From an uncultured virus (IMG/VR IMGVR_UViG_3300042445_002020) (Duplodnaviria > Heunggongvirae > Uroviricota > Caudoviricetes), in IMG/VR virus record IMGVR_UViG_3300042445_002020: DNA of 64,000 nt. The stretch is one strand, 5' to 3'. The notes under the pieces are model-generated. The model saw only the letters and a program-made list of their open reading frames with translations. It did no database searches and was not told the origin of the DNA. A program made the position numbers and the translations under genes. Below, piece by piece: positions 17,235 to 52,705 of the stretch (its first letter is position 1; each line of letters opens with the position of its first letter).

Positions 17235-17236
17235 TA

Positions 17237-17887: not shown

Positions 17888-17888
17888 T

Positions 17889-19830: not shown

Positions 19831-19833
19831 AAA

Positions 19834-23743: not shown

Positions 23744-24462
23744 TGAAAAAAATGTTATTAGCGGGATGTAGTCATTCTGCGGGTTTTGGTTTAGATGACA
23801 TTAATAAATCTTGGGGTAATATATTTGCTAAAAATAACAACCACACGTTAGTTAATGTATCCCAACCTGCAAGTTCATTACAATATGCAATTCAAAAAAT
23901 TGTTGATGAGATATCAAAAGAAGAATATACGACGATAATTCTACAATTAACCACATTTGACAGATATCCAATAACATATAATGGTGAAAATAGATTTCTA
24001 AACAATAACATAACCGATGTTGACACTTCAGTTGCGGATATTTTTCATTTAGTACCCGCCAATTATTTAGAGGCGGTAAATGGAGATAAAATGCCGTTAG
24101 ATAACGACGCAATTAGATTCTTTAATGAAAAAGTAATGCTCTCAACATTTTACCTAAACACCATTATGAATGAAATCTATTTGTTACAACAATTATTAAA
24201 ACATAAAGGAATTTATTTAATCTTAATCCCATATGACGATTATTTTTGGGGTGAGGAAAGTAACATGAGTATATGGAAATTTGAACAATCTAAAAAAATT
24301 GATAAAACTAATTACATAAAATATCCATTTATGAAATGGTTACGAGATAACTATAATCCAGATGATTATTACATGGATAAAGGATTTCATTTAAATGAGG
24401 CAGGACATAAACTTTTCGCTGAAGAATATCTACCAACTCTTCTTAACTCAAATCAATATTAA
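23743..24462 (+). CDS. SGNH/GDSL-hydrolase-like protein
   Basis: LAGCSHSAG block I and D..H(LNEAGH) block V. Confidence 0.7.
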   Translation: MKKMLLAGCSHSAGFGLDDINKSWGNIFAKNNNHTLVNVSQPASSLQYAIQKIVDEISKEEYTTIILQLTTFDRYPITYNGENRFLNNNITDVDTSVADIFHLVPANYLEAVNGDKMPLDNDAIRFFNEKVMLSTFYLNTIMNEIYLLQQLLKHKGIYLILIPYDDYFWGEESNMSIWKFEQSKKIDKTNYIKYPFMKWLRDNYNPDDYYMDKGFHLNEAGHKLFAEEYLPTLLNSNQY

Positions 24463-24463
24463 T

Positions 24464-25264
24464 ATGAAAGTAGTTTTTGGATTTACCCATGTTGTTAACC
24501 ACTACAAACCAATAAACGACAATTTTTTTAGGTTGGCTAAATTGTCCGTTAAATCGGCGAAGAAGTTTTATAAAACTAAAATATATTGCGATAACATATC
24601 CTTAAATCTTTTTAAGGAAAAGGGAATTACATTTGATGAGGTTATTATAATTGATGAGTTTATATTAAAATATACGGATAACTATGAGTATAATAGTAAT
24701 CAATATTCAATATCTAAAATATATGCTATGATGAATGAAACAGAACCATATATTTTGATGGATTTTGACGTGATATTGATGGAAAAATTGGAATCTACCC
24801 ACTCAATTACTTATGGACAACCAGAAGAGAAGTTTGATGGAGATCGTATAACTTTAAATCAATTGTTGTGGGCGTACGATGCTTATATAAACCCATTCAA
24901 TACCCATATGAAGAAATACTTTAATGATGAGGATATTAAGAATTTCAATTGGACAACGTTTCCATCTTTTTGTGTGATAATGGTTAAATTACCATATTTT
25001 GTAAGTACAATTTTTAAGGAAATAATGGATATAGTACCAAGAGAAGAAGTATATAAAATACCACCAACATTATTAGAACAATTCATATTTCACCAATATG
25101 TGTTAAAACATAATGTTGATTTTGGGTTTTTTATCCCACATATTTATAAAGATTATAGTACAAATTTTGAATCATTAGATTTGATATCACAAAAATTTTT
25201 ACACATAAATACGAATAAAAGAGACAGTAGAAAAAACATAGGCTATTTAGAAAATATTGTATGA
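24464..25264 (+). CDS. Putative glycosyltransferase-like protein
   Basis: SKIYA...EPYILMDFDV (DxD), LLEQ. Start moved to the ATG at 24464. Confidence 0.5.
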   Translation: MKVVFGFTHVVNHYKPINDNFFRLAKLSVKSAKKFYKTKIYCDNISLNLFKEKGITFDEVIIIDEFILKYTDNYEYNSNQYSISKIYAMMNETEPYILMDFDVILMEKLESTHSITYGQPEEKFDGDRITLNQLLWAYDAYINPFNTHMKKYFNDEDIKNFNWTTFPSFCVIMVKLPYFVSTIFKEIMDIVPREEVYKIPPTLLEQFIFHQYVLKHNVDFGFFIPHIYKDYSTNFESLDLISQKFLHINTNKRDSRKNIGYLENIV

Positions 25265-26928
25265 AATATATATTAGGGATATCGGCATTTTATCATGATT
25301 CATCGGCCTGTCTATTCAAAGACGGACAATTAATATATGCTTGCGAAGAAGAAAAATTCACAGGCATAAAACATGATAGTGAATTTCCCTTTAATAGTAT
25401 TGGATATATCGTAAAAAAATATAAACTATCAAAAGACAACATTGAGGCGGTTTGTTATTATGAAGACCCTAAATTAAAATTAGAGAGGGTCATTAATAAC
25501 ATAAAACCACAAATTTTTAAAAATACCATTTATTCTTTATCATCTTTCATTAAGATTAAAAGAAATACATATAAATTAAAGAAACTATTGTCTCAATATT
25601 CGGATAATGTTTTTTATTCAACACATCACGAATCACATCTTTATTATTCCTTCTATACATCAAATTTTGAAAACGCAATATGTCTTTCTATCGATGGTGT
25701 TGGTGAGGTTGACACAATGTCTTTAGGGTTAGGTGATAGAGTGGGTATTGATTATATATCAATGGCAAAATACCCACATTCAGTTGGGTTATTCTATTCC
25801 GCAATGACATCGTTTTTAGGGTTTAGACCCAATGAAGGAGAATATAAGGTAATGGGTTTAGCACCATACGGAAACCCCGATATCTATATCGATAAAGTTA
25901 GGAAACTCATTTCGTTTAAAAATAGTAAATTAACATGTAATATGGATGTATTTTGTTGGGATAAATCCAACAAAACAATGTTTAATGACCAACTATGTGA
26001 ACTACTTGAGATGGAACCTCGAGCAATGGATGGTGGATTGGAACCTCACCACAAAGATTTAGCGGCTGCAGTTCAAAAAAGATATGAAGAGATATTATTT
26101 GAAGTGATAAAATCAATATCGTTAATAAACGATAATAGGAATCTTTGTTTAGGTGGAGGATGTGCGTACAATGGAACGGCAAACGGTAAGATTGTAAGAA
26201 ATTCACATTTTAATAATTTATGGATACCTCCCGCACCATCAGATGCCGGATCGGCAATTGGTGCATGTATACACTACTTAGTTAAAAATCGTAAATTAAT
26301 TGGTCGAGTAAATAAATCACCATTTATAGGTCCACATTTTCTTCATAACGATATTTTAGAGGCGATTAAAGGTAAACGATATATTAAATTTAATTTGGAG
26401 GATTCCTTATTACGTAATGTGGCTAAAAAATTAAAAGAGGGTAAAGTAATAGGATGGTACAACGGTTATTGTGAATTTGGGTCCAGGGCTTTAGGAAACA
26501 GGTCAATTTTAGCTGATCCCACTATAGATGGTATGAAAGATAGGATTAATAAATTAATCAAAAAAAGAGAGGGTTTTAGACCATTTGCCCCAATGGTAAT
26601 AAAAGATAAACAACATCTATTTTTTGACGTTACAGATGATGTACCATATATGAATCAAGTTGTACAGGTTAAACCTGAATATAGGGATAAATTACCCGCA
26701 GTTACACACGTCGACGGTAGTGCTAGAATACAAACCGTTTACAAACACACGTTAATATATAAACTATTAGTTAAATTTGAAGAACTATCGGGATACCCTA
26801 TTTTACTTAATACGTCATTTAATGTTAAAGATAAAACTATGGTCCTAACACCAAAAGATGCGGTTGATACGTTTTTTAAAACAGACATGGATTTACTTGT
26901 TATGGGTAATTATTTAATATATAAATAA
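25261..26928 (+). CDS. O-carbamoyltransferase (NodU/CmcH/TobZ family)
   Basis: ILGISAFYHDS, HHESH, DGVGE, GEYKVMGLAPYG, EFGSRALGNRSILA, FRPFAP, THVDGSARIQ, LLNTSFN. Confidence 0.95.
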   Translation: MKYILGISAFYHDSSACLFKDGQLIYACEEEKFTGIKHDSEFPFNSIGYIVKKYKLSKDNIEAVCYYEDPKLKLERVINNIKPQIFKNTIYSLSSFIKIKRNTYKLKKLLSQYSDNVFYSTHHESHLYYSFYTSNFENAICLSIDGVGEVDTMSLGLGDRVGIDYISMAKYPHSVGLFYSAMTSFLGFRPNEGEYKVMGLAPYGNPDIYIDKVRKLISFKNSKLTCNMDVFCWDKSNKTMFNDQLCELLEMEPRAMDGGLEPHHKDLAAAVQKRYEEILFEVIKSISLINDNRNLCLGGGCAYNGTANGKIVRNSHFNNLWIPPAPSDAGSAIGACIHYLVKNRKLIGRVNKSPFIGPHFLHNDILEAIKGKRYIKFNLEDSLLRNVAKKLKEGKVIGWYNGYCEFGSRALGNRSILADPTIDGMKDRINKLIKKREGFRPFAPMVIKDKQHLFFDVTDDVPYMNQVVQVKPEYRDKLPAVTHVDGSARIQTVYKHTLIYKLLVKFEELSGYPILLNTSFNVKDKTMVLTPKDAVDTFFKTDMDLLVMGNYLIYK

Positions 26929-26929
26929 T

Positions 26930-27046
26930 ATGAAAAAACTATTGAATTGGATTAAATCAAAAATTGAGGATTATAAACGTAAAAAACGTTTTAAGAAGAA
27001 ATTAGAAGAATTACGTAAAAAAGACCCATTTATTTACAATCATTAA
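26930..27046 (+). CDS. Small basic 38-aa protein ending DPFIYNH (not in the ORF track)
   Basis: MKKLLNWIKSKIEDYKRKKRFKKKLEELRKKDPFIYNH; starts 1 nt after the carbamoyltransferase stop. Confidence 0.65.
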   Translation: MKKLLNWIKSKIEDYKRKKRFKKKLEELRKKDPFIYNH

Positions 27047-27071
27047 TATGATAAAAATCATTTAAATATAT

Positions 27072-27100
27072 TTGATATTTTCAAATATATTGATTATATT
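27072..27100 (+). promoter_or_regulatory. Sigma70-like promoter TTGATA-17-TATATT
   Basis: Same architecture as at 47653 and 52540. The -10 ends 7 nt before ATG 27108. Confidence 0.5.
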
Positions 27101-27107
27101 AATGGTA

Positions 27108-27542
27108 ATGATATATTGGTTAACTGGTCAGCCTGGTGCCGGAAAAACAACCTTGGCAAAATACTTAGTGGAATACTTTCCGAAAGATGAGGTTACCCAC
27201 ATCGATGGAGATGACCTAAGGGACATCTTTAAAAACAAGGACTATTCCATTACAGGAAGAAGATTAAACATCCAAAGAGCACAATACATTGCACAATTCA
27301 TGCATAGTAAAGGACATAATGTTATTGTATCCCTAGTTTCACCATATAGAGACCAAAGAGAGGCTTTTAAATTCAGCACATCGGTTGTTGAGATTTATGT
27401 ACACACTACAGAGGATAGAGGTAGGAATCAATTCCACGTTGAGGAATATGAACCACCATTAGAAAATTTTATAGATATAGACACAACAATAAAAAACGAA
27501 ACAGATTCATATTATGAACTGTTAAAAAAATTATCATTATGA
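27108..27542 (+). CDS. cysC: Adenylyl-sulfate (APS) kinase
   Basis: WLTGQPGAGKTT P-loop, IDGDDLR, GRRLNI, VSLVSPY, YEPP. Confidence 0.85.
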   Translation: MIYWLTGQPGAGKTTLAKYLVEYFPKDEVTHIDGDDLRDIFKNKDYSITGRRLNIQRAQYIAQFMHSKGHNVIVSLVSPYRDQREAFKFSTSVVEIYVHTTEDRGRNQFHVEEYEPPLENFIDIDTTIKNETDSYYELLKKLSL

Positions 27543-27919
27543 GTAAAAAATACGCAATGTACATCGGAAGATGGCAGAACTGGCATAAGGGGCATGAATG
27601 GTTAATCAATCAACAACTTGATAAGGGTAAGGACATTTGGTTGGCAATCAGGAATGTCCCAATTGATGAAAATAACCCAAAAAGTGCACAAGAGGTTATG
27701 ATGGAATTAGTTGACACCCAATTTTTTAAAGATAATTCACATAAGATTCAAATATCTATTATTCCTGATATTGAATCTGTTAATTATGGTAGAGGTGTTG
27801 GGTACGATGTTATATATCATGAACCTCCCGCTGATGTGGCGGTTATTAGTGGAACGGCTATTAGAACCGGACATATGACGCCAGATGGTACAATAACATA
27901 TGACCAAACTAAAGGATAA
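27539..27919 (+). CDS. HIGH-class nucleotidyltransferase (cytidyltransferase-like)
   Basis: IGRWQNWHKGH, YGRGVGY, ISGTAIR. Confidence 0.75.
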   Translation: MSKKYAMYIGRWQNWHKGHEWLINQQLDKGKDIWLAIRNVPIDENNPKSAQEVMMELVDTQFFKDNSHKIQISIIPDIESVNYGRGVGYDVIYHEPPADVAVISGTAIRTGHMTPDGTITYDQTKG

Positions 27920-28578
27920 TGAAAATTTGTATAATGGCCACTGGTAGGTGTGGATCCGGATCACTTTTTAATTGTATAGACAAACATTTACCTAAGTTTT
28001 ATTATTCTATGAATGAACCATTTCATAAATTAAACAAAATGATAGATGTAAATGGTATCTTTTTAGAATTAAATAAAAAGAAAAATGTGTTTATCAAAAC
28101 ATTAATTGGACAAGGAACCGAAAGATTCACCATAAAGGATAGTGAACTTATACAAACTGATATTAATGAAAAGATAGAATTTAACAATTGGTTTTATAAC
28201 ACTTTTGATAAAATAATTCTATTGGATAGAAGAGAAGAGAGATTGCAAATTGAAAGTATGGCATATCATGATTATTTAAATAATGACCTTGTTTGGAGCA
28301 AAAAAAAATATTACGAAATAAATAAAATACCACCAACATTATTAGAACACACTAAAAAAACATTAGAGTACACTAAAAATGATTTGAAAAATTTTGGTTT
28401 AAAACACAATATAAAAACATATTATTACGAAGATATTTTCATTGATAAAAATATGGATATCATTAATGAGATTTTTGATTACATTGGAATTGTACCAAAC
28501 AAAGAGGTTATTGAAACCTATATTTTATCGGAAGAATTTAAAGTTAGGTTAGATAAAAGACGTAATAAAATACTATGA
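27919..28578 (+). CDS. Sulfotransferase-like protein
   Basis: ATGRCGSGSL (5'-PSB-like loop), NEPF, IILLDR, YYED. Confidence 0.6.
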   Translation: MKICIMATGRCGSGSLFNCIDKHLPKFYYSMNEPFHKLNKMIDVNGIFLELNKKKNVFIKTLIGQGTERFTIKDSELIQTDINEKIEFNNWFYNTFDKIILLDRREERLQIESMAYHDYLNNDLVWSKKKYYEINKIPPTLLEHTKKTLEYTKNDLKNFGLKHNIKTYYYEDIFIDKNMDIINEIFDYIGIVPNKEVIETYILSEEFKVRLDKRRNKIL

Positions 28579-28784
28579 TTGTAGAAAGAAAAAGACACAT
28601 CGCTAAAACCATATCATATCGAATTGTGAGTACCTTGGTTGGTTTCATAATAATGTGGTGGATAAGTGGCTCAATTAAAGTTGGAGTGGCTTTTGGTGTT
28701 GCTGAGTTAGTATATAAACCCATTCAATATTACATCCACGAAAGAGTGTGGTATAGATGGATTAAGTATGGATTAAAAAAATAA
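28575..28784 (+). CDS. DUF2061-like small membrane protein
   Basis: RHIAKTISYRIVST...YYIHERVW. Confidence 0.8.
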   Translation: MIVERKRHIAKTISYRIVSTLVGFIIMWWISGSIKVGVAFGVAELVYKPIQYYIHERVWYRWIKYGLKK

Positions 28785-28790
28785 GATAGT

Positions 28791-29354
28791 ATGATTGACA
28801 ACATAGACATATTTGAAAATTTCTTATCACCTGAAGAGTGTGATTCTATTTTAAATAAATGTAAAGAAGAATTAACATTATCAGATGCTAAAGTATATCA
28901 CGACGATTCTAATAATACACCCACTAAGAAAACTAGAAAATCATCAATCGGTTGGATATCCGATTTAGGGTTTTTAAATGAAAGATTAACAAATAAATTA
29001 ATAGAAACCTTCAATATAAATGGTATGGAAGTTACTGGTCTTGGGGATTTTCAATTTACTGAATATAAAGAAGGTGAATATTTTGATTGGCACACCGATA
29101 GTACCGATACCATATATAGAGACAGGTTTACATCAATAGTAATTCAATTAAACGACACATACGAAGGCGGCATATTAGAAATTAAAAATATTAAAAATGA
29201 ATTAGCGCTAATAGAAAATAAAATTGGAACATTGTATATTTTTAATTCAAGATTACTTCATAGAGTAACCCCAATAGTGAAAGGGATTAGGTATTCATTA
29301 GTAAATTGGGTTTCATTAGTTAAAACAAATTTAGGTAAACAAAATTTAATATAG
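28791..29354 (+). CDS. 2OG-Fe(II) oxygenase (prolyl-hydroxylase-like)
   Basis: FLSPEEC, FDWHTD, YEGG, HRVTP...RYSLV. Confidence 0.9.
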   Translation: MIDNIDIFENFLSPEECDSILNKCKEELTLSDAKVYHDDSNNTPTKKTRKSSIGWISDLGFLNERLTNKLIETFNINGMEVTGLGDFQFTEYKEGEYFDWHTDSTDTIYRDRFTSIVIQLNDTYEGGILEIKNIKNELALIENKIGTLYIFNSRLLHRVTPIVKGIRYSLVNWVSLVKTNLGKQNLI

Positions 29355-29355
29355 T

Positions 29356-29871
29356 ATGATTTCAATCGATAATAATAGTAAAATCTTAAATGATGATGAT
29401 ATGGAATTTTTACAAAAAAAATGTAATAATTTTATTTCATCCCAATCACCAACATTAGAGAAAGATAACATAAATTTTTATTTTAGACAATATATAGATA
29501 TAAAAGACTCCTTAATACATAATATTGTTATGGGATTGGAATCTTACATGAAAACTAAATTATATACTAATTTAGAATTAAAATCAATGTGGATTAATAA
29601 AATTGATATTAACTCTAATAAAGATGATAATTTTCATAAAGATATCTCGCCGTATTCATTAATATTATATTTAAATGATGATTATATAGGAGGAGAGTTA
29701 GAATACATTAATGATACTAATAATAGAATTAAAATTATTCCAGAAAAAAATTTAGCGGTTATTATGGATAATCAGTTAAAACATAGAGTACTACCCATTA
29801 CTAGTGGAGTAAGATATAGTTTGGTGGCTTTTTTTGGTTTTATAGATAAACAAACTAAAAGTATAATTTAA
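29356..29871 (+). CDS. 2OG-Fe(II) oxygenase
   Basis: HKD, LYLNDDYIGG, HRVLP...RYSLV. Confidence 0.85.
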   Translation: MISIDNNSKILNDDDMEFLQKKCNNFISSQSPTLEKDNINFYFRQYIDIKDSLIHNIVMGLESYMKTKLYTNLELKSMWINKIDINSNKDDNFHKDISPYSLILYLNDDYIGGELEYINDTNNRIKIIPEKNLAVIMDNQLKHRVLPITSGVRYSLVAFFGFIDKQTKSII

Positions 29872-29874
29872 AGT

Positions 29875-30513
29875 ATGGAAAAAATATATTTTGATGAAAC
29901 CACATACGTTTGGAAAACTAAACTAAATCGTATAAGTGATAAACAATCGTTTTTAAAAGAAGCATACTCTCTTATAGAATCCCAACCTAAAGTTAAATCA
30001 GATGGATTTGGATATAAAAGAGTATGGAACGAACATTTAAATTTTATTGGTAATATTAAGGTTGAAACAAAATTAGACCAGATTTTTCAAATCGGTATTA
30101 ATAAATGTAAAGAAATTTATAATGAAAAAAATATAAATTACAATAAAATTAATGCAGAATCTTGGATTAATGTTGTTCGATCAAAAAATCCAGTACAAGA
30201 CAATTTTTACAATGGTAAAAAATATCATACACATACCGAAATTAATAAAGGAAACGAACAATTTATTCCGCACTATACATATGTTTATTATATTCAAATG
30301 CCAGATGTAATGAATGGTGATGATGGTGTATTATATTTTAAAGGACAAAATAGTAAGGAATATTGGATAAGGCCGGAAGAAGATGATTTGATAATAATGG
30401 AAGGAGATATACCACACTCACCAAATAGTGCCCCTAATTCAACTATCGATAGAATCGTTATGGCGGGAAATGTTGGGTTTGATTTTATTAAGAAGGAAAA
30501 ATCGTTAATATAA
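29875..30513 (+). CDS. Putative 2OG-Fe(II) oxygenase-like protein
   Basis: SWIN, HTH, YVYYIQMP, PH, RIVMAGN. Confidence 0.65.
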   Translation: MEKIYFDETTYVWKTKLNRISDKQSFLKEAYSLIESQPKVKSDGFGYKRVWNEHLNFIGNIKVETKLDQIFQIGINKCKEIYNEKNINYNKINAESWINVVRSKNPVQDNFYNGKKYHTHTEINKGNEQFIPHYTYVYYIQMPDVMNGDDGVLYFKGQNSKEYWIRPEEDDLIIMEGDIPHSPNSAPNSTIDRIVMAGNVGFDFIKKEKSLI

Positions 30514-31274
30514 TGTTAGTGGATAATAATTTTATATATGTGAATTTACCAAGATGTGGATCAACCTCATTTCACTATTCATGTATATTACACGATTTAG
30601 AAATAAAAAGTCTAAATCCGGAATGGGGAAAAATAAACTCTAAAATTAATTTTAAAAATATAGATGAAAAACATATAATGCATTTAATTACACATGGACA
30701 TGAGGAGTTACAATTGCTTAGAGAAAAGTTTGGATTTCAATATCCCGTAATTGCTGTTAAAAGGGATAGACACGATACTTTTTATTCATTATATAAACAT
30801 ATTCTTTTTGATTTGAAAAGGGCTAACGCACACAAGGTTTATGATTTTTTTAAAAATATAAGTTTAGATGAATTATTTTTTTTTAAAACAAAAGATTTAT
30901 ACTCTAATGAGAATAGACTTAACATAATAAACGATTTTTTATTAAAAAACGAATTTATTAAAAATCCTGCTAGGCCATCTAAACTTATAGACTTATATTC
31001 CGAAGAATATATAGTAAACGTAATTAATATATTAATAACCCCATCATCATATTGGCACAATCACAATAAGGACATTATTTGGTTTGACATTAAAGAATTA
31101 AATCTTATGGAAAAATGGGTTTCAGATAAAATTGGAAAAGAATTTAAGTTAAAACAAGTTAATTCTAGTCAACATATGGAGTGCTCTTTAAAATTAAACC
31201 AAAATTTCAAAGAAAGATACAATAGTATATATGATTTCTACGATACACCAAAAACTAATAAGACACTAATATGA
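30513..31274 (+). CDS. Sulfotransferase family 2-like protein
   Basis: FIYVNLPRCGSTS, AVKRD...FYSLY, VNSS. Confidence 0.65.
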   Translation: MLVDNNFIYVNLPRCGSTSFHYSCILHDLEIKSLNPEWGKINSKINFKNIDEKHIMHLITHGHEELQLLREKFGFQYPVIAVKRDRHDTFYSLYKHILFDLKRANAHKVYDFFKNISLDELFFFKTKDLYSNENRLNIINDFLLKNEFIKNPARPSKLIDLYSEEYIVNVINILITPSSYWHNHNKDIIWFDIKELNLMEKWVSDKIGKEFKLKQVNSSQHMECSLKLNQNFKERYNSIYDFYDTPKTNKTLI

Positions 31275-31891
31275 TAAAAAATTACTATATATTTGATGAT
31301 ATAATATCAACTGAAGAACAAAAAATTATAAACGATTATGTAAATCGTTCTAATATAGAATGGGTATCAATCAAAAATGTCACTGGTGAATACGGAGGAA
31401 AAAAAGAAACACGCAAATTTCCAGCAAAAGTTCATCCAAAACTCAAATGTAAAGACAAAGAAATTAATCGTATAATTGATGGTATAGAATTGGTTGTTAC
31501 AAAAAAACTAAATTTAGAATTTATTAAAAATTATAGATGGAAAATTAATTGGACTTCACCAATTGGTGAGTATAATCCTATGGATTTACTACATTACGAT
31601 GATGCTACCGAACACATTGCTATGGTTTATTATATTAACAATTCAACCGGAGATACCTGCATTTATAATAATACTAATGGAAATAACGCCGAAACATTTC
31701 AAAAAAATTTTAATAATGTAGATTATGACTCATACTCTCTATTGGGTAGTGTATCTCCTAAAATGGGTAGATGTCTTGTATTTGATGGAAAATTAGCACA
31801 TCTTGGAAATTATCCATCAAATGGAGATAGGTTTATTATAAATTTTAATTTTGTAGCAAAATTAAAAAACTCACGAAACTCATTGATATAA
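31271..31891 (+). CDS. 2OG-Fe(II) oxygenase-like protein
   Basis: HYD, VYYINNSTGDT, PKMGRCLVFDG..H...RFIINFN. Confidence 0.75.
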   Translation: MIKNYYIFDDIISTEEQKIINDYVNRSNIEWVSIKNVTGEYGGKKETRKFPAKVHPKLKCKDKEINRIIDGIELVVTKKLNLEFIKNYRWKINWTSPIGEYNPMDLLHYDDATEHIAMVYYINNSTGDTCIYNNTNGNNAETFQKNFNNVDYDSYSLLGSVSPKMGRCLVFDGKLAHLGNYPSNGDRFIINFNFVAKLKNSRNSLI

Positions 31892-31977
31892 TATTAGTAG
31901 ATGAAAAATTCATAAAAAGATATTATAATATTTATGATTATTACGATAATCAAAAAACTAATAAGACACTAATATAA
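31891..31977 (+). pseudogene. Internally deleted remnant of a paralogue of 30513..31274
   Basis: Translates ILVDEKFIKRYYNIYDYYDNQKTNKTLI*, i.e. the start (MLVDNNFI) joined to the end (RYNSIYDFYDTPKTNKTLI) of the sulfotransferase-like gene. Start codon is ATA. Confidence 0.75.
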
Positions 31978-31978
31978 G

Positions 31979-32281
31979 ATGTTTAAAATACCCGCAATTA
32001 ATTATAAAGAAATATTTGAAGCTTGGAAAATTTCACGTAATCCGACACCAAAACAAGAGGAGTTAGCTAAATTAAGACTCGAAGTATGTTTGGGGTGTGA
32101 ATTTAGAAAAGAAACAATAAAAGGGTTAAAATGGAGTGCTCTTTGTGGAAAATGTGGGTGTCCTCTGAATAAGAAAGTGTTCTCAACAAACTACAACGCT
32201 TGTCCAGCAAAAAAATGGGAAAATACCGATTTTGGGTATATAGAACCAAAGGAAGATAAAAAAAATAAGACATTAATCTGA
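31979..32281 (+). CDS. Small Cys-rich (probable metal-binding) protein
   Basis: RLEVCLGC...CGKCGCPL...CPAKKW; ends KTLI. Confidence 0.7.
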   Translation: MFKIPAINYKEIFEAWKISRNPTPKQEELAKLRLEVCLGCEFRKETIKGLKWSALCGKCGCPLNKKVFSTNYNACPAKKWENTDFGYIEPKEDKKNKTLI

Positions 32282-32308
32282 GATTTTGATTAAAATCATT
32301 AATTCACC

Positions 32309-32316
32309 TATTTATA
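32309..32316 (+). promoter_or_regulatory. Putative late-promoter motif TATTTATA
   Basis: Intergenic, 19 nt before ATG 32336; same motif as before the tail fibre genes. Confidence 0.45.
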
Positions 32317-32335
32317 TATAAACGGAATAAAATTT

Positions 32336-33811
32336 ATGAAAGCAACGATAATTGGTAGTGATTTACTACAAAAAGACGGATCAGTTAAAATTATAGAAAT
32401 AAACACTAATACCTGTATCACCAACGATGGTGCAAACTTATTAGATTATACAGCGTTATTCAGCATGTTAACGGATAATAATATTACAGAATTTCATTAT
32501 ATATTGACTGAAGGAAAAGCGTATTCCCCTTTAGATGAACCACATAAGTTTCGTAATATATTACAAACTAAATGTTTAGAAAACGACATATCTTTTAACG
32601 AACACGTTGTACCCGCTAATTCAGTTACGGTGCCATATATAGAAGATGCATCTCATAAATTTATTTTAAGACAAGCATTTGATACCACGGCATTAGTGGA
32701 TGATTTATATTGTGCCGACAAATTTGAGTTTTTTAATTTAATGAGTGGATCCACATATATTCCAAAAACATATTTTACATCTGAAGAATTAAATTTAAAT
32801 ACTTTAGATGAAGTAGATTACGACACAACCAAACCAAATCTTTTGATAAAATCAAAACAGGTTTCGTATGATGTTATGGCATATCCGGCAATATATAATG
32901 TTACCGATTCAAACCAACTATCTGAAGTTATTGGTTCCGTTGAAAGTGGTCATTTAGTTCAAGAATTCATATTTTCTGAGGATAATGTGGTGGATGGAAG
33001 ATATTCAACAATAAGAAGTATTGATATTATATATGGTCCTAATTTAGATATCATTAATATGGGTGGATATACTCACTCGAGTAGATTACCACTCACATTT
33101 AGTGAGGATGAACTTATTTCCGATACTAGAAAGTTTAATCAAAAAACTAGACATAAGTATATTACAAAATCTATTAGGAATCGAGTAGAAGGAAACGAAT
33201 ACCATACAGATGACGATTCAAATATTTTAAAATATGATGGTACTTTAGTGGATGTTGACACTATTCAATTAGGTGACTTTATTCGTTCTATTAATTTTAC
33301 CGATACTAATGAAAATGAAGCGGCTTCATTTACAAATAATATAGCCACATATGGATGGACTGGTACACTATCACAATTAAACAATACGTTAACACCAATG
33401 CAATCTGAATTAGTGGGTATGGTATCAACATCACTAGAAATGGTAATGATAAAGGTAACTTTATCGGATGGACGAACTTGGACAGAAGCTCCAAATTCTA
33501 CTTTTTTTATTGAAGAAAAAGACTCTACCGAAACCAGATGGGAGGTAATAAATAATTGTTATATTGGTGATAAAATAGTTGTTACAGATTCTAATACAAC
33601 CGAATTAACGGCGGTAGCGATTTCTAATTTAGAGATGGTATACGAAACTAAAACAATATATACTTTAGATTTTGCACCATCCGATTTATTCTTAGTGGAT
33701 GTTGGAGATAGTGATTTTGCTGTAATGCACAATGGTTGTTGGTGTAGTTATTGGTATTGTGGTAACTATTGTTATCAACAATATTGCCCAACTTGTTTCT
33801 CCGAAAAATAA
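32336..33811 (+). CDS. Circularly permuted ATP-grasp-like domain + degenerate Hint domain + 25-aa Cys/aromatic-rich C-terminal peptide
   Basis: GSDLL..GSVKIIEINTN at the N-terminus, then DKFEF, IPKTY, LLIK, LVQEFI. Hint-like ILKYDGTLVDVDTIQLGDFI...IGDKIV...IYTLDFAPSDLFLV...MHN, then GCWCSYWYCGNYCYQQYCPTCFSEK. Confidence 0.7.
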   Translation: MKATIIGSDLLQKDGSVKIIEINTNTCITNDGANLLDYTALFSMLTDNNITEFHYILTEGKAYSPLDEPHKFRNILQTKCLENDISFNEHVVPANSVTVPYIEDASHKFILRQAFDTTALVDDLYCADKFEFFNLMSGSTYIPKTYFTSEELNLNTLDEVDYDTTKPNLLIKSKQVSYDVMAYPAIYNVTDSNQLSEVIGSVESGHLVQEFIFSEDNVVDGRYSTIRSIDIIYGPNLDIINMGGYTHSSRLPLTFSEDELISDTRKFNQKTRHKYITKSIRNRVEGNEYHTDDDSNILKYDGTLVDVDTIQLGDFIRSINFTDTNENEAASFTNNIATYGWTGTLSQLNNTLTPMQSELVGMVSTSLEMVMIKVTLSDGRTWTEAPNSTFFIEEKDSTETRWEVINNCYIGDKIVVTDSNTTELTAVAISNLEMVYETKTIYTLDFAPSDLFLVDVGDSDFAVMHNGCWCSYWYCGNYCYQQYCPTCFSEK

Positions 33812-33874
33812 ACTATATAAGTAATATATAGTTCTAATCTCAAAGTATTAATAATTCAAATAAAAAATAAAATT

Positions 33875-34024
33875 ATGGCAAAGGTAGAAAAAATAAGAGT
33901 ATCAAGACCCGCACAGGTAGTTAAAGTAATTACTGGTCCATTATCTAATGATTTAAAAACAAAAGTAGCAACTGCATTTGAATCTGTCGTATCTGCAATT
34001 AAAGTTAAACATTTAGGAGAATAA
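33875..34024 (+). CDS. Small basic 49-aa protein (not in the ORF track)
   Basis: MAKVEKIRVSRPAQVVKVITGPLSNDLKTKVATAFESVVSAIKVKHLGE, preceded by an A-rich leader. Confidence 0.65.
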   Translation: MAKVEKIRVSRPAQVVKVITGPLSNDLKTKVATAFESVVSAIKVKHLGE

Positions 34025-34066
34025 TATCTACTAAGTATTTGATTTCATTAGTTAAATTGTTATAAG

Positions 34067-35116
34067 ATGAAATCTAAAATAGATTTAAAGAATTATTTTT
34101 GTGGTGTTCCCTTTAATTCATTAGAAATACATAATAATGTTTGTTTTGTTTGTTGCCCATCATGGGTACCAAATAAAATAGAACTTAGTGAAATACCACT
34201 AAAAGATGTTTATAATAGTGAACCTGTAGTTGATATTAGAAATTCAATATTAGATGGTTCGTTTAAGTATTGTAATAAAGAACTTTGTCCTTATTTAAGT
34301 AAATTAGTAAACTATGGGGTAACATCTGGTCCAGTTACTTTAAAATCCAATTCAACCATCAATGACCCAATTGTAAAGAATGGTACTCCAGATAATATTG
34401 TGATGAACTTTGATAGGACTTGTAATTACAAATGTCCTTCATGTAGAGTTGATTTAATTGTTGAAAATAGTGAAGGTATAAAACGAGTTGAAAAAACAAT
34501 TGAGGAGATTGATAATTACTTTTCACAACACGTTAAGACTTTATACATTACAGGATCGGGAGACCCATTTGTTTCCGTTGGGTTTAGAAACTATCTTAGA
34601 AACTTTAACCCCAAAAAATATCCAAACTTAAAATCAATACACTTACATACTAACGCATCGATGTGGAATAAAGAAATGTGGGATAGTATGCCTAACATAC
34701 ACAAATACGTTCATACCTGTGAAATCAGTATAGACGCCGGTACCAAAGATACGTATGAAAATAAAACAAGATTAGGAGGTAATTGGAAGAACTTATTAAG
34801 TAATCTTAAATTCATAAGTACGTTACCAATAAATGTGAAAACATCCTTTGTTGTACAAGATTCTAACTATATGGAAATGGGAGAATTTTATAACCTGATG
34901 TATTCTATTTTTGGTAAAAAAGTAAACGTGTTCTTTGGTAAGATAACTAATTGGGGGACATTTTCTGAAGGAGAATTTAAATTAAAACAAGTATGGGACA
35001 CGGACCATCCCGAGCATCAACTATTTAAAAATGAATTTAATAAAATATGGAAAAATCAAAATCTATTTCATAATTTATATGAGTTTATTGACACCACAAA
35101 TAAAACTTTAATTTAA
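34067..35116 (+). CDS. Radical SAM protein
   Basis: CNYKCPSC, GSGDPF, HTNA, ISIDAG; N-terminal C..CC..C..C cluster. Confidence 0.9.
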   Translation: MKSKIDLKNYFCGVPFNSLEIHNNVCFVCCPSWVPNKIELSEIPLKDVYNSEPVVDIRNSILDGSFKYCNKELCPYLSKLVNYGVTSGPVTLKSNSTINDPIVKNGTPDNIVMNFDRTCNYKCPSCRVDLIVENSEGIKRVEKTIEEIDNYFSQHVKTLYITGSGDPFVSVGFRNYLRNFNPKKYPNLKSIHLHTNASMWNKEMWDSMPNIHKYVHTCEISIDAGTKDTYENKTRLGGNWKNLLSNLKFISTLPINVKTSFVVQDSNYMEMGEFYNLMYSIFGKKVNVFFGKITNWGTFSEGEFKLKQVWDTDHPEHQLFKNEFNKIWKNQNLFHNLYEFIDTTNKTLI

Positions 35117-35637
35117 TGAAAATCTCATTTAGTAAAGAAGAATGTGATTATATAATCAATTTATCCAAAGAATTAGATAAAATAAATCCGTTTGATAAAC
35201 CTGACCATATGAGTAAAGATAAAACTTTTAAGGTAAACTATGATGTGTGGTTAATTAATAGAAACGAAAAAACTCAATGGATATTTGATAAAATTCACAT
35301 GTATTTTACGAATAAAACTGATTTAAAAATAAAAAAAGAATTAGATAAAATATACATACACAAATATATTGAAGGACAACAATTTTCAAAACACGCTGAC
35401 ACATATTATAAAACACAAATACACAATGTGGGTGTTTGTTTAAATAATGATTATGATGGAGGTGAATTTGTTCTTTATAATCCAGAAGAACCGTTACCAA
35501 AAGAGACGGGTATTATATATACTTTCCCTAGTCAAAGAATACATGAAGTAAAAAAAATAATAAAAGGTGAAAGATGGAGTATAATTGGATTTTTACATAT
35601 TGACAATTTAGATCTTCAAAAAAAATCACTAATATGA
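35116..35637 (+). CDS. 2OG-Fe(II) oxygenase
   Basis: FSKEEC, HAD, LNNDYDGG, HEVK...RWS. Confidence 0.85.
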   Translation: MKISFSKEECDYIINLSKELDKINPFDKPDHMSKDKTFKVNYDVWLINRNEKTQWIFDKIHMYFTNKTDLKIKKELDKIYIHKYIEGQQFSKHADTYYKTQIHNVGVCLNNDYDGGEFVLYNPEEPLPKETGIIYTFPSQRIHEVKKIIKGERWSIIGFLHIDNLDLQKKSLI

Positions 35638-36191
35638 AAATTGGTATAACAGGTCATTCAGAAGGAATTGGAAACGATATCTATTTGAATTTAATAAAAG
35701 AATATGATGTCACAGGATTTAGTAGAAGTAATGGATTTGATATAAAAAATACAGATGAAATTATTGAGCAATTAGAAAATTGTGATGTTTTTATAAACAA
35801 TGTATACGAAAAAAATCACCAAACAATATTATTTGAATTAATTTTTGATAAATGGAAGTTTTTACCAAAAACAATTATTAATATGAATAGTAGTTGTGTT
35901 TATCATTCATCCGATTGGTCACCAGAATATGCAAATAATAAAAAAGAGTTAAAAGAAGTATCTTTAAATGCAATTAGAAATAATAAAAATAAAAAAGTTA
36001 GAGTCATAAATTTATATCCATCCACCTTATCAACTCATATGGGGTTTGAAAGTTTAAATAAATTAGATACTGAAAATCTTGCAAAAATGATAAATTGGTT
36101 AATAAAACAACCACAGGAAGTTGAAATTAGGGAAATGAGTATATACTGTACAACAGTGGAGAAAGAATTCAAAATAGATAAATTAATATAA
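35634..36191 (+). CDS. Short-chain dehydrogenase/reductase-like protein
   Basis: ITGHSEGIG, VFINN, IINMNS, YANNK (YxxxK). Confidence 0.75.
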   Translation: MKIGITGHSEGIGNDIYLNLIKEYDVTGFSRSNGFDIKNTDEIIEQLENCDVFINNVYEKNHQTILFELIFDKWKFLPKTIINMNSSCVYHSSDWSPEYANNKKELKEVSLNAIRNNKNKKVRVINLYPSTLSTHMGFESLNKLDTENLAKMINWLIKQPQEVEIREMSIYCTTVEKEFKIDKLI

Positions 36192-37361
36192 ATGGAAATA
36201 CAATTTTGGTATTGTGGTAATCTACCAAACACGAATATTAAAAACTCAATTGAAAAAATAGATAATACCATTTTATTCAAAAACATTTATATTGATGAAA
36301 TAGACCTCACAAAATTAAATTTTTTAGTTTTATTGTTAGAAACAGAATGGACTAATTCTTCAAATTATGGTGTGGTACATACACACACTAACAAATTTAT
36401 GGAATTGATAATTAAATTACAGAGTAATAATTTTTATTTTATGTTGGATAATTCAGGAGAAGCCGAACTTTGGGTTGATGGACTATCCTCAAAATTCTTT
36501 GATTTATTAAATAAAAATAAAATTGATTTCAACAGATTAATCGTAATTAATAATGACTCATCTAAAATTGGGTTGAATAAAACAAGGTATGGTAATTTTA
36601 TATTAAATACGTGTTTCTTCCCTAATTTTTTCTTATCGACCTATAATCAAATGAATGAGTATGTTACTATTAATGAGGGAATTAAACCAGATAAAAAGTT
36701 TTTATGTTTGAATAGAAGAATGAATTTTCAAAAATATCAAATTATTGAAGAATTATTTAATAAAGGGTTATTAAAAGATACTCGATTTACATGGGTACGC
36801 AACTCGGTACCCAACAATAAGATAAGTAAAGAATTAATACTAGAATACAATATAGATGTAAATAACTTCAAATCAATTCAATTGGAGGGTGATGTAATGT
36901 ACGGAAGTGATTTATCGCGTCACGATGAGTTTCTATTCACAATAAACCCTAATTGGTACTATAAAAGTAAAGTTAATATTATAACCGAAACAACGTTATA
37001 TAAAAATTCAATACATCTTACAGAAAAAACATGGAAAGCCATATATCTAGGTGTTCCATTTGTTATATATTCTCCATCACGAAATTATCTTAACACCTTG
37101 AGAGATATGGGGTTTAAGACGTTTAATTCGGTGATAAATGAGGATTATGACAGTATTATAGGTAATGATAAGATAACTCAAATTATAAATAGTGCGGAGG
37201 AATTAGTTACCATTTATAACACACCGGAAGTGTTGGATATATGTAAATTTAACCAAGAATTATATTTTAATTTTGAGCATCGAAAAAGAATATATGAAGA
37301 AGTTTTTTTAAATAAAATTCACGATGCTCAAAATTTAACAAACCCTAAAACATTAATATAA
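36192..37361 (+). CDS. Conserved hypothetical protein, possibly GT-B glycosyltransferase-like
   Basis: KFLCLNRR, NIITET, LTEKTWKAI...PF...GFKTF...EDYD. Confidence 0.5.
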   Translation: MEIQFWYCGNLPNTNIKNSIEKIDNTILFKNIYIDEIDLTKLNFLVLLLETEWTNSSNYGVVHTHTNKFMELIIKLQSNNFYFMLDNSGEAELWVDGLSSKFFDLLNKNKIDFNRLIVINNDSSKIGLNKTRYGNFILNTCFFPNFFLSTYNQMNEYVTINEGIKPDKKFLCLNRRMNFQKYQIIEELFNKGLLKDTRFTWVRNSVPNNKISKELILEYNIDVNNFKSIQLEGDVMYGSDLSRHDEFLFTINPNWYYKSKVNIITETTLYKNSIHLTEKTWKAIYLGVPFVIYSPSRNYLNTLRDMGFKTFNSVINEDYDSIIGNDKITQIINSAEELVTIYNTPEVLDICKFNQELYFNFEHRKRIYEEVFLNKIHDAQNLTNPKTLI

Positions 37362-37915
37362 TGCGAGTTCTGGTTTTATCCCATACGAGATGTGGATCTA
37401 CCACGTTATGTAAATGGTTAAGTAAAGAGTTAGATATTGTTTTGGACGAAAGACCATACGATTTTAAAACATTTAATTCGATAACTAAATCTAATAATGT
37501 TATAAAAAAAATTGTTGTTGAGGAATATTACCCAACAAAAGAGGACATTATTAAATTTGATAAAGTTGTGTGCTTAACAAGGGAAAATAGTACAGAAGCG
37601 TCGATTAGTTTTACACAATCCAAAAATATTGATAAATGGCACGATCAATATGAAATAACAACGGAATGGATTGGTGAAAATAAAAATGAAATATTGAAAC
37701 AAATATACAAATATGACGAGATGAAATTAAGGTTAAAAGAATATAAGGTTTTTCAAACAACATATGAAAGTATCTATGTTAGTAAATCTGATATTAATAA
37801 AATTTTAAACTATATGGATATTGATTCACCAAAATATTTAGATATGTTAAATTATGATAAAAAATATAGAAAAGATAATAATGTTTTTATTAAAAAACAT
37901 ATTGGAATTATATGA
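37361..37915 (+). CDS. Sulfotransferase-like protein
   Basis: SHTRCGSTTL, ERP, CLTR, TYE; similar to 27919..28578. Confidence 0.6.
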   Translation: MRVLVLSHTRCGSTTLCKWLSKELDIVLDERPYDFKTFNSITKSNNVIKKIVVEEYYPTKEDIIKFDKVVCLTRENSTEASISFTQSKNIDKWHDQYEITTEWIGENKNEILKQIYKYDEMKLRLKEYKVFQTTYESIYVSKSDINKILNYMDIDSPKYLDMLNYDKKYRKDNNVFIKKHIGII

Positions 37916-38565
37916 TAAGAATATATTACCATATTTACGCAATTGATGGGGTTGAGTCGATTATAGAAGAACAACTTTCTTTAATGGAAACCCATTTTAA
38001 TTTTAAACATATAATAAACATTGGAATATGTTTATCGGAAGAAAACATACCAATAGATAATATTATTAAATTAATCGACAAGTACAATAAATCAAATCAT
38101 ATAGTTGTTTGTGATATTAAAAATGAATGCAATGAGTTTGTAACTTTAGACTTAATAGAAACACATAAATCAACATTTGATGATAACGATTTAATTTTTT
38201 ACCTACACACTAAGGGAGCATCTAAACAAAAAAGTGATGATTATAAAGAAAATGTAATTTGGAGAAACAGAATGCAAGATGTTAACATAAAAAACCACAA
38301 TCATGTTTTTAATTTGTTTAATAGTACCGATTTTAACACATATGGTTTATTATTAGAAAATGTAAACAATTTAATTTATTCAGGAAATTTTTGGTGGGTT
38401 AAAGGAAAATATATTAAAACAATTAATATTGAAGATGTTGAAAAGAATAGATGGAATGCGGAGTCACAATACATACAAAATGGAACTAATTGGAACCCAT
38501 ATTCGGAGTATGTTAAAATGATAAAAACAAAACCTCCATATTATAAAAAAAACAAATTAATATAA
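37912..38565 (+). CDS. Hypothetical protein, possibly glycosyltransferase-related
   Basis: IYYHI, NEFVTL, FYLHTKG, YSGNFWW. Confidence 0.5.
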   Translation: MIRIYYHIYAIDGVESIIEEQLSLMETHFNFKHIINIGICLSEENIPIDNIIKLIDKYNKSNHIVVCDIKNECNEFVTLDLIETHKSTFDDNDLIFYLHTKGASKQKSDDYKENVIWRNRMQDVNIKNHNHVFNLFNSTDFNTYGLLLENVNNLIYSGNFWWVKGKYIKTINIEDVEKNRWNAESQYIQNGTNWNPYSEYVKMIKTKPPYYKKNKLI

Positions 38566-38574
38566 TTATAAAAT

Positions 38575-39375
38575 ATGAATCCATTAAAATATTGGACATT
38601 GGAGGGATTTGAAATATCTTCATTTCAATTTAATTTAAATGAAAGAAAGGGAAAAACACATAAAACATCGGGTTCCGATAATACGAGGTTGTGTACATAT
38701 ACATATAATGAATTAGGATTTAGAGGTGATAGTGTAAAAAAAGAGGGGTTTAAAGTAATGTCATTAGGTTGTTCACATACCGAAGGTGTTGGTGTTGATT
38801 ACAATAATACGTGGCCAACGCAATTTACAAATCTTATACCAAACGGTGTTAATATGAATTTTGGTGTGGGTGGTAGAAGTAATGATTTTATTGTTAGATG
38901 TTTGATGTCATATTATGATGTGATAAAACCGGATTTAGTGTTAGTAATGTACCCATCACCATTAAGAAGGGAAGTGTATACAAAAGATGGAGGAGTGGAA
39001 CCATTTGTGCCAACTCATTCATGGGGATATATGAATGGAACCGAAGACGGTAAACAAACACAAAATTATTTAACCGAGTTACAAAACGATAATGAAGATT
39101 TTATTAATTGGTATAAAAATCACCAACTAATAAAATTATTTTTAGAATCTAAAAATTGTAATTGGATTTGGAATGGGTCATTCGGTATACCAATCGAATA
39201 TAGTGAATATAATAGATTTGATGGGGAATACCTATTTTTTATTGATAAGGGTGTTGATGGTGGTCATCCAGGACCCAAACAAAATAAAAGTTACGCCAAT
39301 AAATTACACGATTATATTTTATTAAATTTCCCAAATTACATACCATTTGATAATTTTAAATCAAAATTAATATAA
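38575..39375 (+). CDS. SGNH-hydrolase-like protein
   Basis: NELGFRG, LGCSHTEGVG, NFGVGG, DGGHPG. Confidence 0.7.
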   Translation: MNPLKYWTLEGFEISSFQFNLNERKGKTHKTSGSDNTRLCTYTYNELGFRGDSVKKEGFKVMSLGCSHTEGVGVDYNNTWPTQFTNLIPNGVNMNFGVGGRSNDFIVRCLMSYYDVIKPDLVLVMYPSPLRREVYTKDGGVEPFVPTHSWGYMNGTEDGKQTQNYLTELQNDNEDFINWYKNHQLIKLFLESKNCNWIWNGSFGIPIEYSEYNRFDGEYLFFIDKGVDGGHPGPKQNKSYANKLHDYILLNFPNYIPFDNFKSKLI

Positions 39376-52672: not shown

Positions 52673-52705
52673 CAATTTTATAAACTTTTCTTAAACAAAA
52701 ACAAA

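Follow-up and report, generated by a model that had tools for sequence, protein, structure and literature searches.

The DNA analysed here (the window) is a stretch of 64,000 nucleotides from an uncultured virus of the Caudoviricetes, IMG/VR record IMGVR_UViG_3300042445_002020. At 32336..33811 on the plus strand it carries an open reading frame (ORF), P0001, whose stop-free translation of 491 amino acids is predicted to comprise an ATP-grasp ligase domain, a Hint domain and a short cysteine-rich tail. Searches of Pfam, PHROGs and PDB sequences with the single P0001 sequence gave no significant match, and for this reason the domain assignments rest on structure prediction, fold search and a family profile. 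Folds were compared by VIA-align (Z scores) and Foldseek, and profiles by means of the family profile and hhalign. The family alignment used throughout (A2) has 136 rows, namely P0001 with 24 close and 111 distant homologues of at least 440 amino acids, at identities down to ~22%. The AlphaFold2 model of P0001 obtained from this alignment (predicted local distance difference test, pLDDT, 90.5; predicted template modelling score, pTM, 0.85) consists of two domains of high confidence plus the tail, residues 470–491 being the only poorly defined part. The predicted three-part architecture is supported by structure, profile and conservation. No description of a ligase–Hint–cysteine tail layout was found in the literature searched, which covered ATP-grasp enzymes in Hint or intein-like, phage and ribosomally synthesised and post-translationally modified peptide (RiPP) contexts. 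In the BFVD library of viral structures the model matched only Hint-containing proteins (TMq ≤0.29), and none of the best 50 rows spans it as a whole.

Residues 1–281 (32336..33178, plus strand) were found to resemble the circularly permuted ATP-grasp amide ligases of the GspS, YgiC and eukaryotic glutathione synthetase (GS) type. The best VIA-align match was YgiC (7uka; Z 10.0, 202 aligned residues, model 1–279), followed by E. coli GspS (2io7; Z 9.2, model 1–281), 5oeu (Z 9.0) and 3kaj (Z 8.5), with eukaryotic GS-type enzymes at Z 7–9, trypanothione synthetase (2vpm) at Z 7.7 and the fungal ligase Cp1B (9cjn) at Z 7.6. Foldseek matched the domain to YgiC/YjfC at E ~3e-5. RimK, LysX/ArgX, TTLL and DcsG gave Z 5.5–6.4 with alignments starting only at about residue 50, as a circular permutation predicts for classical ATP-grasps. 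Eukaryotic glutathione synthetase is a permuted ATP-grasp, and the metal-ligand strands come first in P0001, in the same order as in the GspS/eukaryotic-GS branch. These matches agree with an initial annotation, made from the sequence alone, which had placed a permuted ATP-grasp at the N-terminus.

The motif GSDLL...IIEINTN (residues 7–25) contains a putative Mg2+-ligand triad, D9...E21-x-N23 (32360..32404, plus strand), which is conserved in 134 (D9), 135 (E21) and 135 (N23) of the 136 rows; R112, K172 and R227 are each kept in 135 and D122 in at least 134. With model residue 1 on YgiC residue 94, VIA-align places the triad in register with D102/E114/N116 of YgiC, and the same register was returned by a weak hhalign comparison (E 0.035, probability 1.5%). 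The equivalent residues of trypanothione synthetase, D330/E344/N346, are described as coordinating Mg2+, and the Arg of its R328-x-D330 motif as aligning the substrate carboxylate (PMC2427367). P0001 shares the fold, the permuted order and the D...E-x-N triad with YgiC/YjfC, the glutathionylspermidine and trypanothione synthetases and eukaryotic GS. It differs from the YgiC/GspS-type enzymes in lacking the Arg before the first Asp, in its fusion to a Hint domain and a peptide, and in lacking sequence-family membership, as no ATP-grasp Pfam family matched P0001 at E ≤10. In the characterised enzymes of the GspS/YgiC branch, a small peptide is phosphorylated at its C-terminal carboxylate and then joined to an amine. 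YgiC and YjfC themselves are named as peptide–spermidine ligases (RefSeq product name of YgiC; PMC12568646). We read residues 1–281 as an active amide ligase, as predicted from fold and conservation.

Residues 289–466 (33200..33733, plus strand) are predicted to adopt a Hint fold without the first Cys and without the block-B TxxH. In VIA-align the closest structures were Tetrahymena BIL2 (bacterial intein-like, BIL; 6tmm, Z 15.3), the NpuDnaB intein (Z 15.2), a Clostridium BIL domain (2lwy, Z 14.9) and hedgehog (1at0, Z 14.4). Model residues 283–468 match Hint domains along their full length, and residues 287–466 align with the whole chains of more than 20 inteins (Z 12–15). Hint matches in Foldseek reached E values down to 2.5e-8, with inteins at 1e-7 to 1e-5, and positions 289–450 of the family profile match the KlbA intein (2jmz) at E 6.9e-9. 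The Pfam Hint models, PT-HINT (PF07591) included, gave no match to residues 289–466 of P0001. The Hint fold that had been proposed for this region is borne out by the structural matches (Z 13–15).

At the start of the domain (YHTDDDS, residues 289–295), Cys is present in at most 2 of the 136 rows in every column from 286 to 295, and further in, His is present in at most 6 rows in every column from 372 to 395. Position 290 (His290), which superimposes on intein residue 1, holds His in 55 rows, Gly in 23, Lys in 18, Ser in 10, Ile in 8 and Thr in 5. On these column counts, Cys1 and the block-B His are missing across the whole family. The terminal His-Asn (H465-N466; 33728..33733, plus strand), by comparison, is conserved in 129 (H465) and 134 (N466) rows, and besides it no Hint-domain column is kept in 90% of the rows or more. 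The loss of the first Cys/Ser and of the block-B His with retention of His-Asn, noted initially for the single sequence, is thus a family-wide feature. At the block-F Asp (D445), 86 rows have Asp and 19 have Asn. The structural alignments stop at residue 466, which corresponds to the last residue of inteins, and a cut is predicted after N466. The Hint domain lies near the C-terminus and does not interrupt a conserved host protein, and the commonest residues at the +1 position are Ala (28 of 136), Ser (17), Pro (12), Tyr (12) and Gly (10), so that no +1 nucleophile of the intein type is kept.

Without Cys1 and the block-B His, the domain can perform neither an N-terminal acyl shift nor splicing. 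The sole remaining Hint reaction is predicted to be Asn cyclisation with a cut after N466, and Asn cyclisation is the mechanism described for C-terminal cleavage by Hint domains (PMC4031507). Autocleavage of P0001 at N466 is predicted with good confidence.

The sequence following His-Asn was classified in the 136 rows by a script, with subsequent hand correction using Pfam results. A Cys-rich tail of 15–90 residues stands alone in 85 rows, and a long Cys-rich tail with no Pfam match is present in six. In six others a Cys-rich segment is followed by a canonical Hint domain (Cys start; His-Asn and Lys-rich end), and in eight by a Peptidase_S74 self-cleaving chaperone domain (E 1e-6 to 0.011, three of the eight exceeding the Pfam cut-off). 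One to three canonical Hint domains come directly after His-Asn in 22 rows, and nine rows have a tail of eight residues or fewer. The extra Hint domains of the longer homologues are matched by PT-HINT (PF07591) or Intein_splicing. Further self-cleaving domains therefore follow the Asn in 36 of the 136 sequences, and in 14 of these a Cys-rich segment is bracketed by two self-cutting modules. Such two-sided bracketing fits the release of the Cys-rich segment and would be hard to explain otherwise.

In P0001 itself, His-Asn is followed by Gly and the six-Cys tail, the predicted released peptide (residues 467–491; 33734..33808, plus strand). Translation confirms the composition given in the initial annotation, as the tail, GCWCSYWYCGNYCYQQYCPTCFSEK, has 25 amino acids with 6 Cys, 5 Tyr and 2 Trp. 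From 223 full-length members of the family, 179 tails of 15–90 residues were obtained, and all 179 have an even number of Cys (0 in one tail, 4 in two, 6 in 140, 8 in 27, 10 in seven and 12 in two). Diverse representatives of the 50%-identity clusters follow the same rule. Even parity with both 6 and 10 being common fits disulfide pairs and neither Cys4 zinc sites nor thioether cross-links; the suggestion that radical S-adenosylmethionine (SAM) enzymes mature the tail at its Cys residues is weakened accordingly. The composition of the P0001 tail fits the cyclotide/knottin type (six Cys in ~25–35 residues). Acidic residues of the graspetide type do not stand out as conserved in the tails inspected by eye. 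A Lys is found among the last four residues in 194 of the 223 members, compared with 152 of the 318 ORFs of one relative's genome, and this terminal Lys is missing in one subclade of 28 representatives.

The tail was also found to be the fastest-evolving part of the protein. Among 45 protein pairs whose bodies are 97% identical or more, divergence is 1.0% in the body but 8.7% in the tail (~9 times faster), and six pairs combine identical bodies of 466 residues with one to three tail changes. At the DNA level (75 loci; 50 pairs with a body rate of synonymous substitution, dS, below 0.5), the rate of non-synonymous substitution (dN) is 0.16 in the tail versus 0.03–0.04 in the body, dS in the same pairs is 0.85 versus 0.32, and dN/dS is 0.19–0.27 versus 0.10–0.12. 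For the 12 closest DNA pairs, the proportions of synonymous (pS) and non-synonymous (pN) differences are 0.14 and 0.032 in the tail and 0.026 and 0.002 in the body. The excess is concentrated in three of the 12 pairs, in which synonymous and non-synonymous sites have changed together; changes at many tail sites at once are a signature of segment exchange, and the pattern indicates that the tail has probably been exchanged by recombination. Positive selection on the tail was considered and not demonstrated, dN/dS never exceeding 1. A diversity-generating retroelement as the source of the variation was rejected, since no template-repeat copy of the tail-coding DNA was found within 31000–36000 and no reverse transcriptase among the 41 ORFs of 13–54.6 kb scanned with Pfam. 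The expectation of an invariant His-Asn joined to a variable Cys-rich tail was upheld, in that His-Asn is nearly invariant and the tail varies fastest, whereas the Cys framework itself is conserved within subfamilies.

A total of 566 homologues of P0001 were found at E ≤1e-3 among 90%-identity clusters and 271 among 50%-identity representatives, and none of the 120 matches listed has a functional name. Of the relatives, 327 were located in viral contigs, and the nearest ESM Atlas clusters are 93–100% viral (Uroviricota). An identical gene is present on a 42.8-kb IMG/VR fragment, and relatives with 59–67% identity occur in phage records of 251–316 kb, one of which is complete with terminal repeats. 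A T4-type gp23 capsid gene was found in three of the three records searched and a capsid of nucleocytoplasmic large DNA viruses in none of them. The family is viral, belongs to T4-like jumbo phages and is unnamed. The run labels of matching sequence data refer to lake water. A tblastn search of 50,697 phage records gave no match, in a collection that may omit records very near the genome of the window, and a pattern scan (alignment A1, 18 close sequences) of 185,579 prokaryote species genomes, which reaches close relatives only, returned no relative. No loci were found with the tail-less homologue P0191 and the triple-Hint homologue P0261 as single-protein queries; an alignment of Hint-tandem homologues (A5) did retrieve loci. 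Four lake-water metatranscriptome runs yielded contigs 90–96% alike over parts of the ORF, the tail and a small downstream ORF. These contigs come from relatives and may include DNA carry-over, and they are not counted as proof of expression. Contigs from the RNA libraries (~91–96% alike) span 33664-34063 in one piece, including the end of the Hint domain, the tail, the spacer and the small ORF, and differ from the window most densely in the tail codons, with an in-frame loss of 3 nt among the differences.

Directly after the stop codon of P0001, a perfect inverted repeat of 8-5-8 layout with a 5-nt loop (33812..33832) was read from the sequence, with no T-run downstream of it. The small ORF that follows (33875..34024, plus strand; 49 amino acids, ending ...K-H-L-G-E) lies below ordinary length cut-offs and was hence missed. 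By tblastn it follows the homologue in 75 of 80 close loci (L002–L081), and 17 distant loci (L098–L114) gave no match to it at E ≤1e-3. Its C-terminus is fixed as ...IK.KHL with 0–2 residues beyond, and it has no Cys and no Pfam match. The candidate role of an immunity gene was rejected, as the ORF is 64–70% identical where the body is ~62% (by inspection) and is not hypervariable.

Upstream of P0001 lies P0272 (31979..32281, plus strand), of 100 amino acids with a KTLI end, which is the upstream neighbour in 28 of 30 close loci (homologues of 95–101 amino acids). It belongs to PHROG 13558, of unknown function, and six Cys (C37, C40, C56, C59, C61 and C75) are invariant in 25 sequences; the resulting CxxC...CxxCxC...C is zinc-ribbon-like by pattern only. 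A complex prediction for P0001 (A2) and P0272 (A3) scored 0.01, which is evidence neither way. Further upstream, P0273 (30513..31274, plus strand; KTLI end), present in 30 of the 30 loci, is sulfotransferase-like. The top 12 VIA-align rows of its model (pLDDT 92.2) are all sulfotransferases, of heparan-sulfate N-, 2-O-, 3-O- and 6-O- types (Z 8.5–7.2), with tyrosylprotein sulfotransferase at Z 4.7–4.8; Foldseek by itself gave E ≥0.075. An adenosine 5'-phosphosulfate (APS) kinase gene (Pfam E 3e-17) was identified at 27072-27542, 3 kb from P0273, and the two genes suggest a phage-encoded supply of 3'-phosphoadenosine-5'-phosphosulfate (PAPS) and a putative sulfation function. P0273 and P0272 are adjacent in most of the 30 loci. 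In the window a 72-nt direct repeat, 83% identical, occurs at 31201-31272 and 31904-31975, and its second copy, in the spacer before P0272, is a relic of a P0273-like 3' end including the tag codons described below. A 2-oxoglutarate (2OG) oxygenase gene at 31271-31891 looks to have been inserted between P0273 and P0272, probably via recombination at these tag-coding ends.

The KTLI ends belong to a wider pattern. Sixteen of the 63 ORFs of the window end in [LI]-I, usually as ...[KN]-[TS]-L-I and more broadly as ...[KN][TSK]-L-I or -I-I, and all of them lie within 19834-39375. The tagged products have unrelated folds (radical SAM, 2OG oxygenase, sulfotransferase-like, short-chain dehydrogenase/reductase-like and others of unknown type). 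The codons of the tag vary (Leu as TTA, TTG or CTA; Ile as ATA, ATT or ATC; stop as TAA, TGA or TAG), as does the spacing to the next gene, so that the tag is kept at the protein level. Across the 30 close loci an [LI][ILM] ending was found in 263 of 300 neighbours within five genes on either side and in 56 of 383 farther away, and in a complete relative of 288,673 bases (383 ORFs) 12 of the 23 tagged ORFs lie within the 23 kb around the homologue. In 15 of the 19 loci of a distant Hint-tandem subfamily, 22–27% identical to P0001 and without a Cys-rich segment, one or more of the neighbours within five genes are tagged, and in 13 of the loci three or more are (59 of 171 neighbours tagged), 2OG-oxygenase-like and radical-SAM-like genes among them. 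No separate small Cys-rich ORF was found in these Hint-tandem loci. As the tagged island is also present where there is no Cys-rich peptide, it accompanies the ligase–Hint body rather than the peptide.

Radical-SAM-like genes number at least seven in the window, including one that encodes a SPASM domain, and 2OG-Fe(II) oxygenase-like genes also number at least seven; the APS kinase gene and methyltransferase genes are present as well. The tagged island also holds family 7 glycosyltransferase (GT7) genes and a NodU/NolO-like carbamoyltransferase gene. The 2OG-oxygenase genes are syntenic in 30 of 30 related loci, and the radical SAM gene at 34067-35116 is found within five genes in only 11 of 30. 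Five consecutive radical-SAM-like genes lie at 15849-23743. In one of their products (21288-22694, ~10 kb upstream of P0001) the SPASM domain (residues 19–83) precedes the radical SAM core (130–296); SPASM is usually C-terminal to that core, and the order therefore looks reversed. Two adjacent glycosyltransferase genes at 13020-15847 match Glyco_transf_7N/7C, and one is fused to Laminin_G_3; family-7 galactosyltransferases are of a mainly eukaryotic type. A tRNA-Arg(CCG) of 91 nt called by ARAGORN at 52583-52673 overlaps the GTG start of the ORF at 52589-53590, and one of the two calls is probably wrong.

Several known systems share part of this architecture. In polymorphic toxins a HINT peptidase is described just before a recombining C-terminal toxin, with release inferred (PMC3482391), and P0001 likewise has a Hint domain directly before a variable, recombining C-terminal module. 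It differs in that it is found in a phage, in that its N-terminal part is an enzyme instead of a secretion or filament stalk, and in that the variable module of its family is a Cys peptide of 25–32 amino acids and not a toxin domain. Moreover, its Hint domain, without Cys1 and block B, is unmatched by PF07591, and the 49-residue downstream ORF lacks the co-variation with the tail expected of an immunity gene. The best structural matches, type-A BIL (2lwy) and Tetrahymena BIL2 (6tmm/6y75), have the terminal His-Asn and require no +1 nucleophile, as in P0001. BIL domains reportedly auto-cleave; they start with Cys, however, and can cleave or ligate N-terminally, whereas the P0001 family has His, Gly or Lys at that position, so that the C-terminal half of the type-A pattern is present and the N-terminal half is not. 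Six homologues, with a Hint domain ending in His-Asn, a peptide and a Hint domain starting with Cys, resemble split intein circular ligation of peptides and proteins (SICLOPPS; 5ol6 is among the structural matches), whose engineered cassette has the same topology of C-intein, peptide and N-intein. In the homologues both flanking Hint domains are complete, the first residue of the peptide is not Cys or Ser, and natural cyclisation would be hypothetical. An enzyme and a C-terminal core also occur on one polypeptide in the methyltransferase–core fusions of borosins (OphMA type) and in BURP-domain cyclase–core fusions. These have other enzyme folds and need a separate protease, where P0001 would use its built-in Hint domain.

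The reading we favour, at a probability of about one half, is that the ligase–Hint part is a carrier from which Asn cyclisation releases a polymorphic peptide that forms disulfides. P0001, from a large T4-like phage of lake water, would then process itself and be used only once. After folding, N466 would cyclise to a succinimide and break the N466–G467 bond, in C-terminal cleavage only, like that of inteins or BIL domains lacking an upstream nucleophile, and this would free a peptide of ~3 kDa with a free Gly amine. In an oxidising place, for example after lysis, the six Cys could pair into three disulfides, and the peptide would act as a polymorphic effector, analogous to the toxin tips released by HINT. 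On balance, the released peptide is probably the functional product. A role for the ligase on the released peptide is more tentative, and falls short of being probable. In that case it would act on a peptide carboxylate kept near by the fusion, the likeliest substrate being the tail's own C-terminus, to which the ligase may couple an amine as an amide or which it may join to the new N-terminus in a head-to-tail ring. The tagged enzymes may associate with the conserved ligase–Hint body and not with the peptide, which is also a weaker part of the scheme.

Several observations weigh against this reading. The tail has a pLDDT of 30–50, its placement is not confident, and the model gives no sign that it reaches the ligase site. 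Position 7 is Gly, Ser or Ala in the alignment, where trypanothione synthetase has R328. At the position of the block-F His (450), which is described as assisting Asn cyclisation in class 1 inteins (PMC4031507), 102 of the 136 rows have Asp and 20 have His, so that most of these Hint domains are without it. The Cys-parity counts are non-independent, 118 members being at least 56% identical to P0001. Crude Nei–Gojobori estimates of dN/dS, at 0.19–0.37 for the tail and 0.10–0.12 for the body, are below 1. Finally, a Cys-rich peptide is missing from ~31 of the 136 homologues (the 22 with direct Hint domains and the nine with short tails), so that the family must serve some purpose besides peptide release.

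Among the other explanations, the one that survives best, though we think it unlikely, is a RiPP pathway in which the Cys-, Tyr- and Trp-rich tail is a core on which the LI-tagged enzymes nearby (radical SAM, 2OG-oxygenase, sulfotransferase-like and others) act as tailoring enzymes. P0001 has a conserved part and a variable C-terminal part, as in a RiPP precursor, the tail evolving ~9 times faster. Tyr and Trp are enriched in it, radical-SAM-like, 2OG-Fe(II) oxygenase-like, APS kinase and methyltransferase genes lie in the window, the tag is concentrated in near neighbours, and P0273 and the 2OG oxygenases are syntenic in all 30 loci. The enzymes with LI tails, which had been proposed initially as tailoring steps, do surround the gene. 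That proposal is weakened, however, by the tagged islands that flank the Hint-tandem homologues without a Cys-rich segment (15 of 19 loci), and the even Cys parity fits disulfides and not thioethers. P0273 is closer to carbohydrate than to tyrosylprotein sulfotransferases, and the GT7 glycosyltransferases and the NodU/NolO-like carbamoyltransferase of the island fit glycan chemistry. The nearby radical SAM gene at 34067 recurs in a minority of loci. SCIFF (six Cys in forty-five) peptides and other ranthipeptides have an adjacent SPASM maturase; in the window it is the radical SAM gene at 34067 that follows P0001, and the SPASM-bearing gene lies ~10 kb upstream. Graspetides have a RimK-type ligase and a core with conserved Thr/Ser/Lys and Asp/Glu partners, and the P0001 ligase is nearer to the GspS type (Z 10) than to RimK (Z 6.2).

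A somewhat less likely explanation holds that the Hint domain is dead, the ATP-grasp serving in small-molecule metabolism (e.g., as a peptide–polyamine ligase) and the Hint domain with its Cys knob being a structural, metal-binding or targeting module. It would agree with the absence of Cys1, of the block-B His and mostly of the block-F His, with the failure of every Pfam Hint model to recognise residues 289–466, and with the ligase residues being the most strictly conserved part of the protein. It would leave unexplained why His-Asn is kept in 129–134 of 136 rows while no other Hint column reaches 90%, and why new modules attach right after the Asn, with further self-cleaving domains there in 36 rows. 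The rapid divergence of the tail is also unlike that of a structural knob.

The least probable explanation is drawn from the tag, and in it the ligase–Hint protein is a protein-ligase hub. The ATP-grasp domain would activate the ...K-[TS]-L-I-COOH end of neighbouring enzymes and join it to an amine of its own tail (that of the near-terminal Lys or of the new N-terminus), and the Hint domain would release the conjugate, so that one enzyme would receive a peptide or cap from each hub molecule. Peptide C-terminal carboxylates are the substrates of the closest characterised enzymes, and since its ligase branch handles peptide C-termini, the body may dock or act on tagged C-termini. The tag also accompanies the ligase–Hint body whatever follows His-Asn, its varying codons point to maintenance at the protein level, and the excess of Lys among the last four tail residues would provide the amine. 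In a broader form, which is scarcely less doubtful, the ligase–Hint protein would be the hub of a new phage system in which at least a dozen interchangeable enzymes are addressed by ...K-[TS]-L-I, with ATP-driven joining to a Hint-exposed amine. The acyl donor would be the tagged C-terminus or the tail's own, and the products cyclotide-like cyclised disulfide peptides or enzyme–peptide conjugates. We regard a hub as improbable, as it is pure inference for which no precedent was found, the terminal Lys is missing in the subclade of 28 representatives, single-turnover stoichiometry would be costly, and the tag-coding ends resemble one another at the DNA level too and may chiefly be sites of recombination. 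If true, such a system would amount to a naturally occurring, gene-encoded equivalent of the inteins used to cyclise or ligate peptides.

P0001 anchors a conserved island of enzymes with a common C-terminal tag. If cleavage at N466 and release of the tail are true, the finding would join three fields, namely natural Hint domains confined to C-terminal cleavage, an ATP-grasp branch fused to its likely substrate, and polymorphic effectors or RiPP-like peptides of viruses. A compact release module that relies on Asn alone and tolerates different +1 residues could be of use in protein engineering. For the T4-like jumbo phages that carry the family, it would mean a widespread device which makes and frees a fast-diversifying, disulfide-rich peptide with no separate protease.

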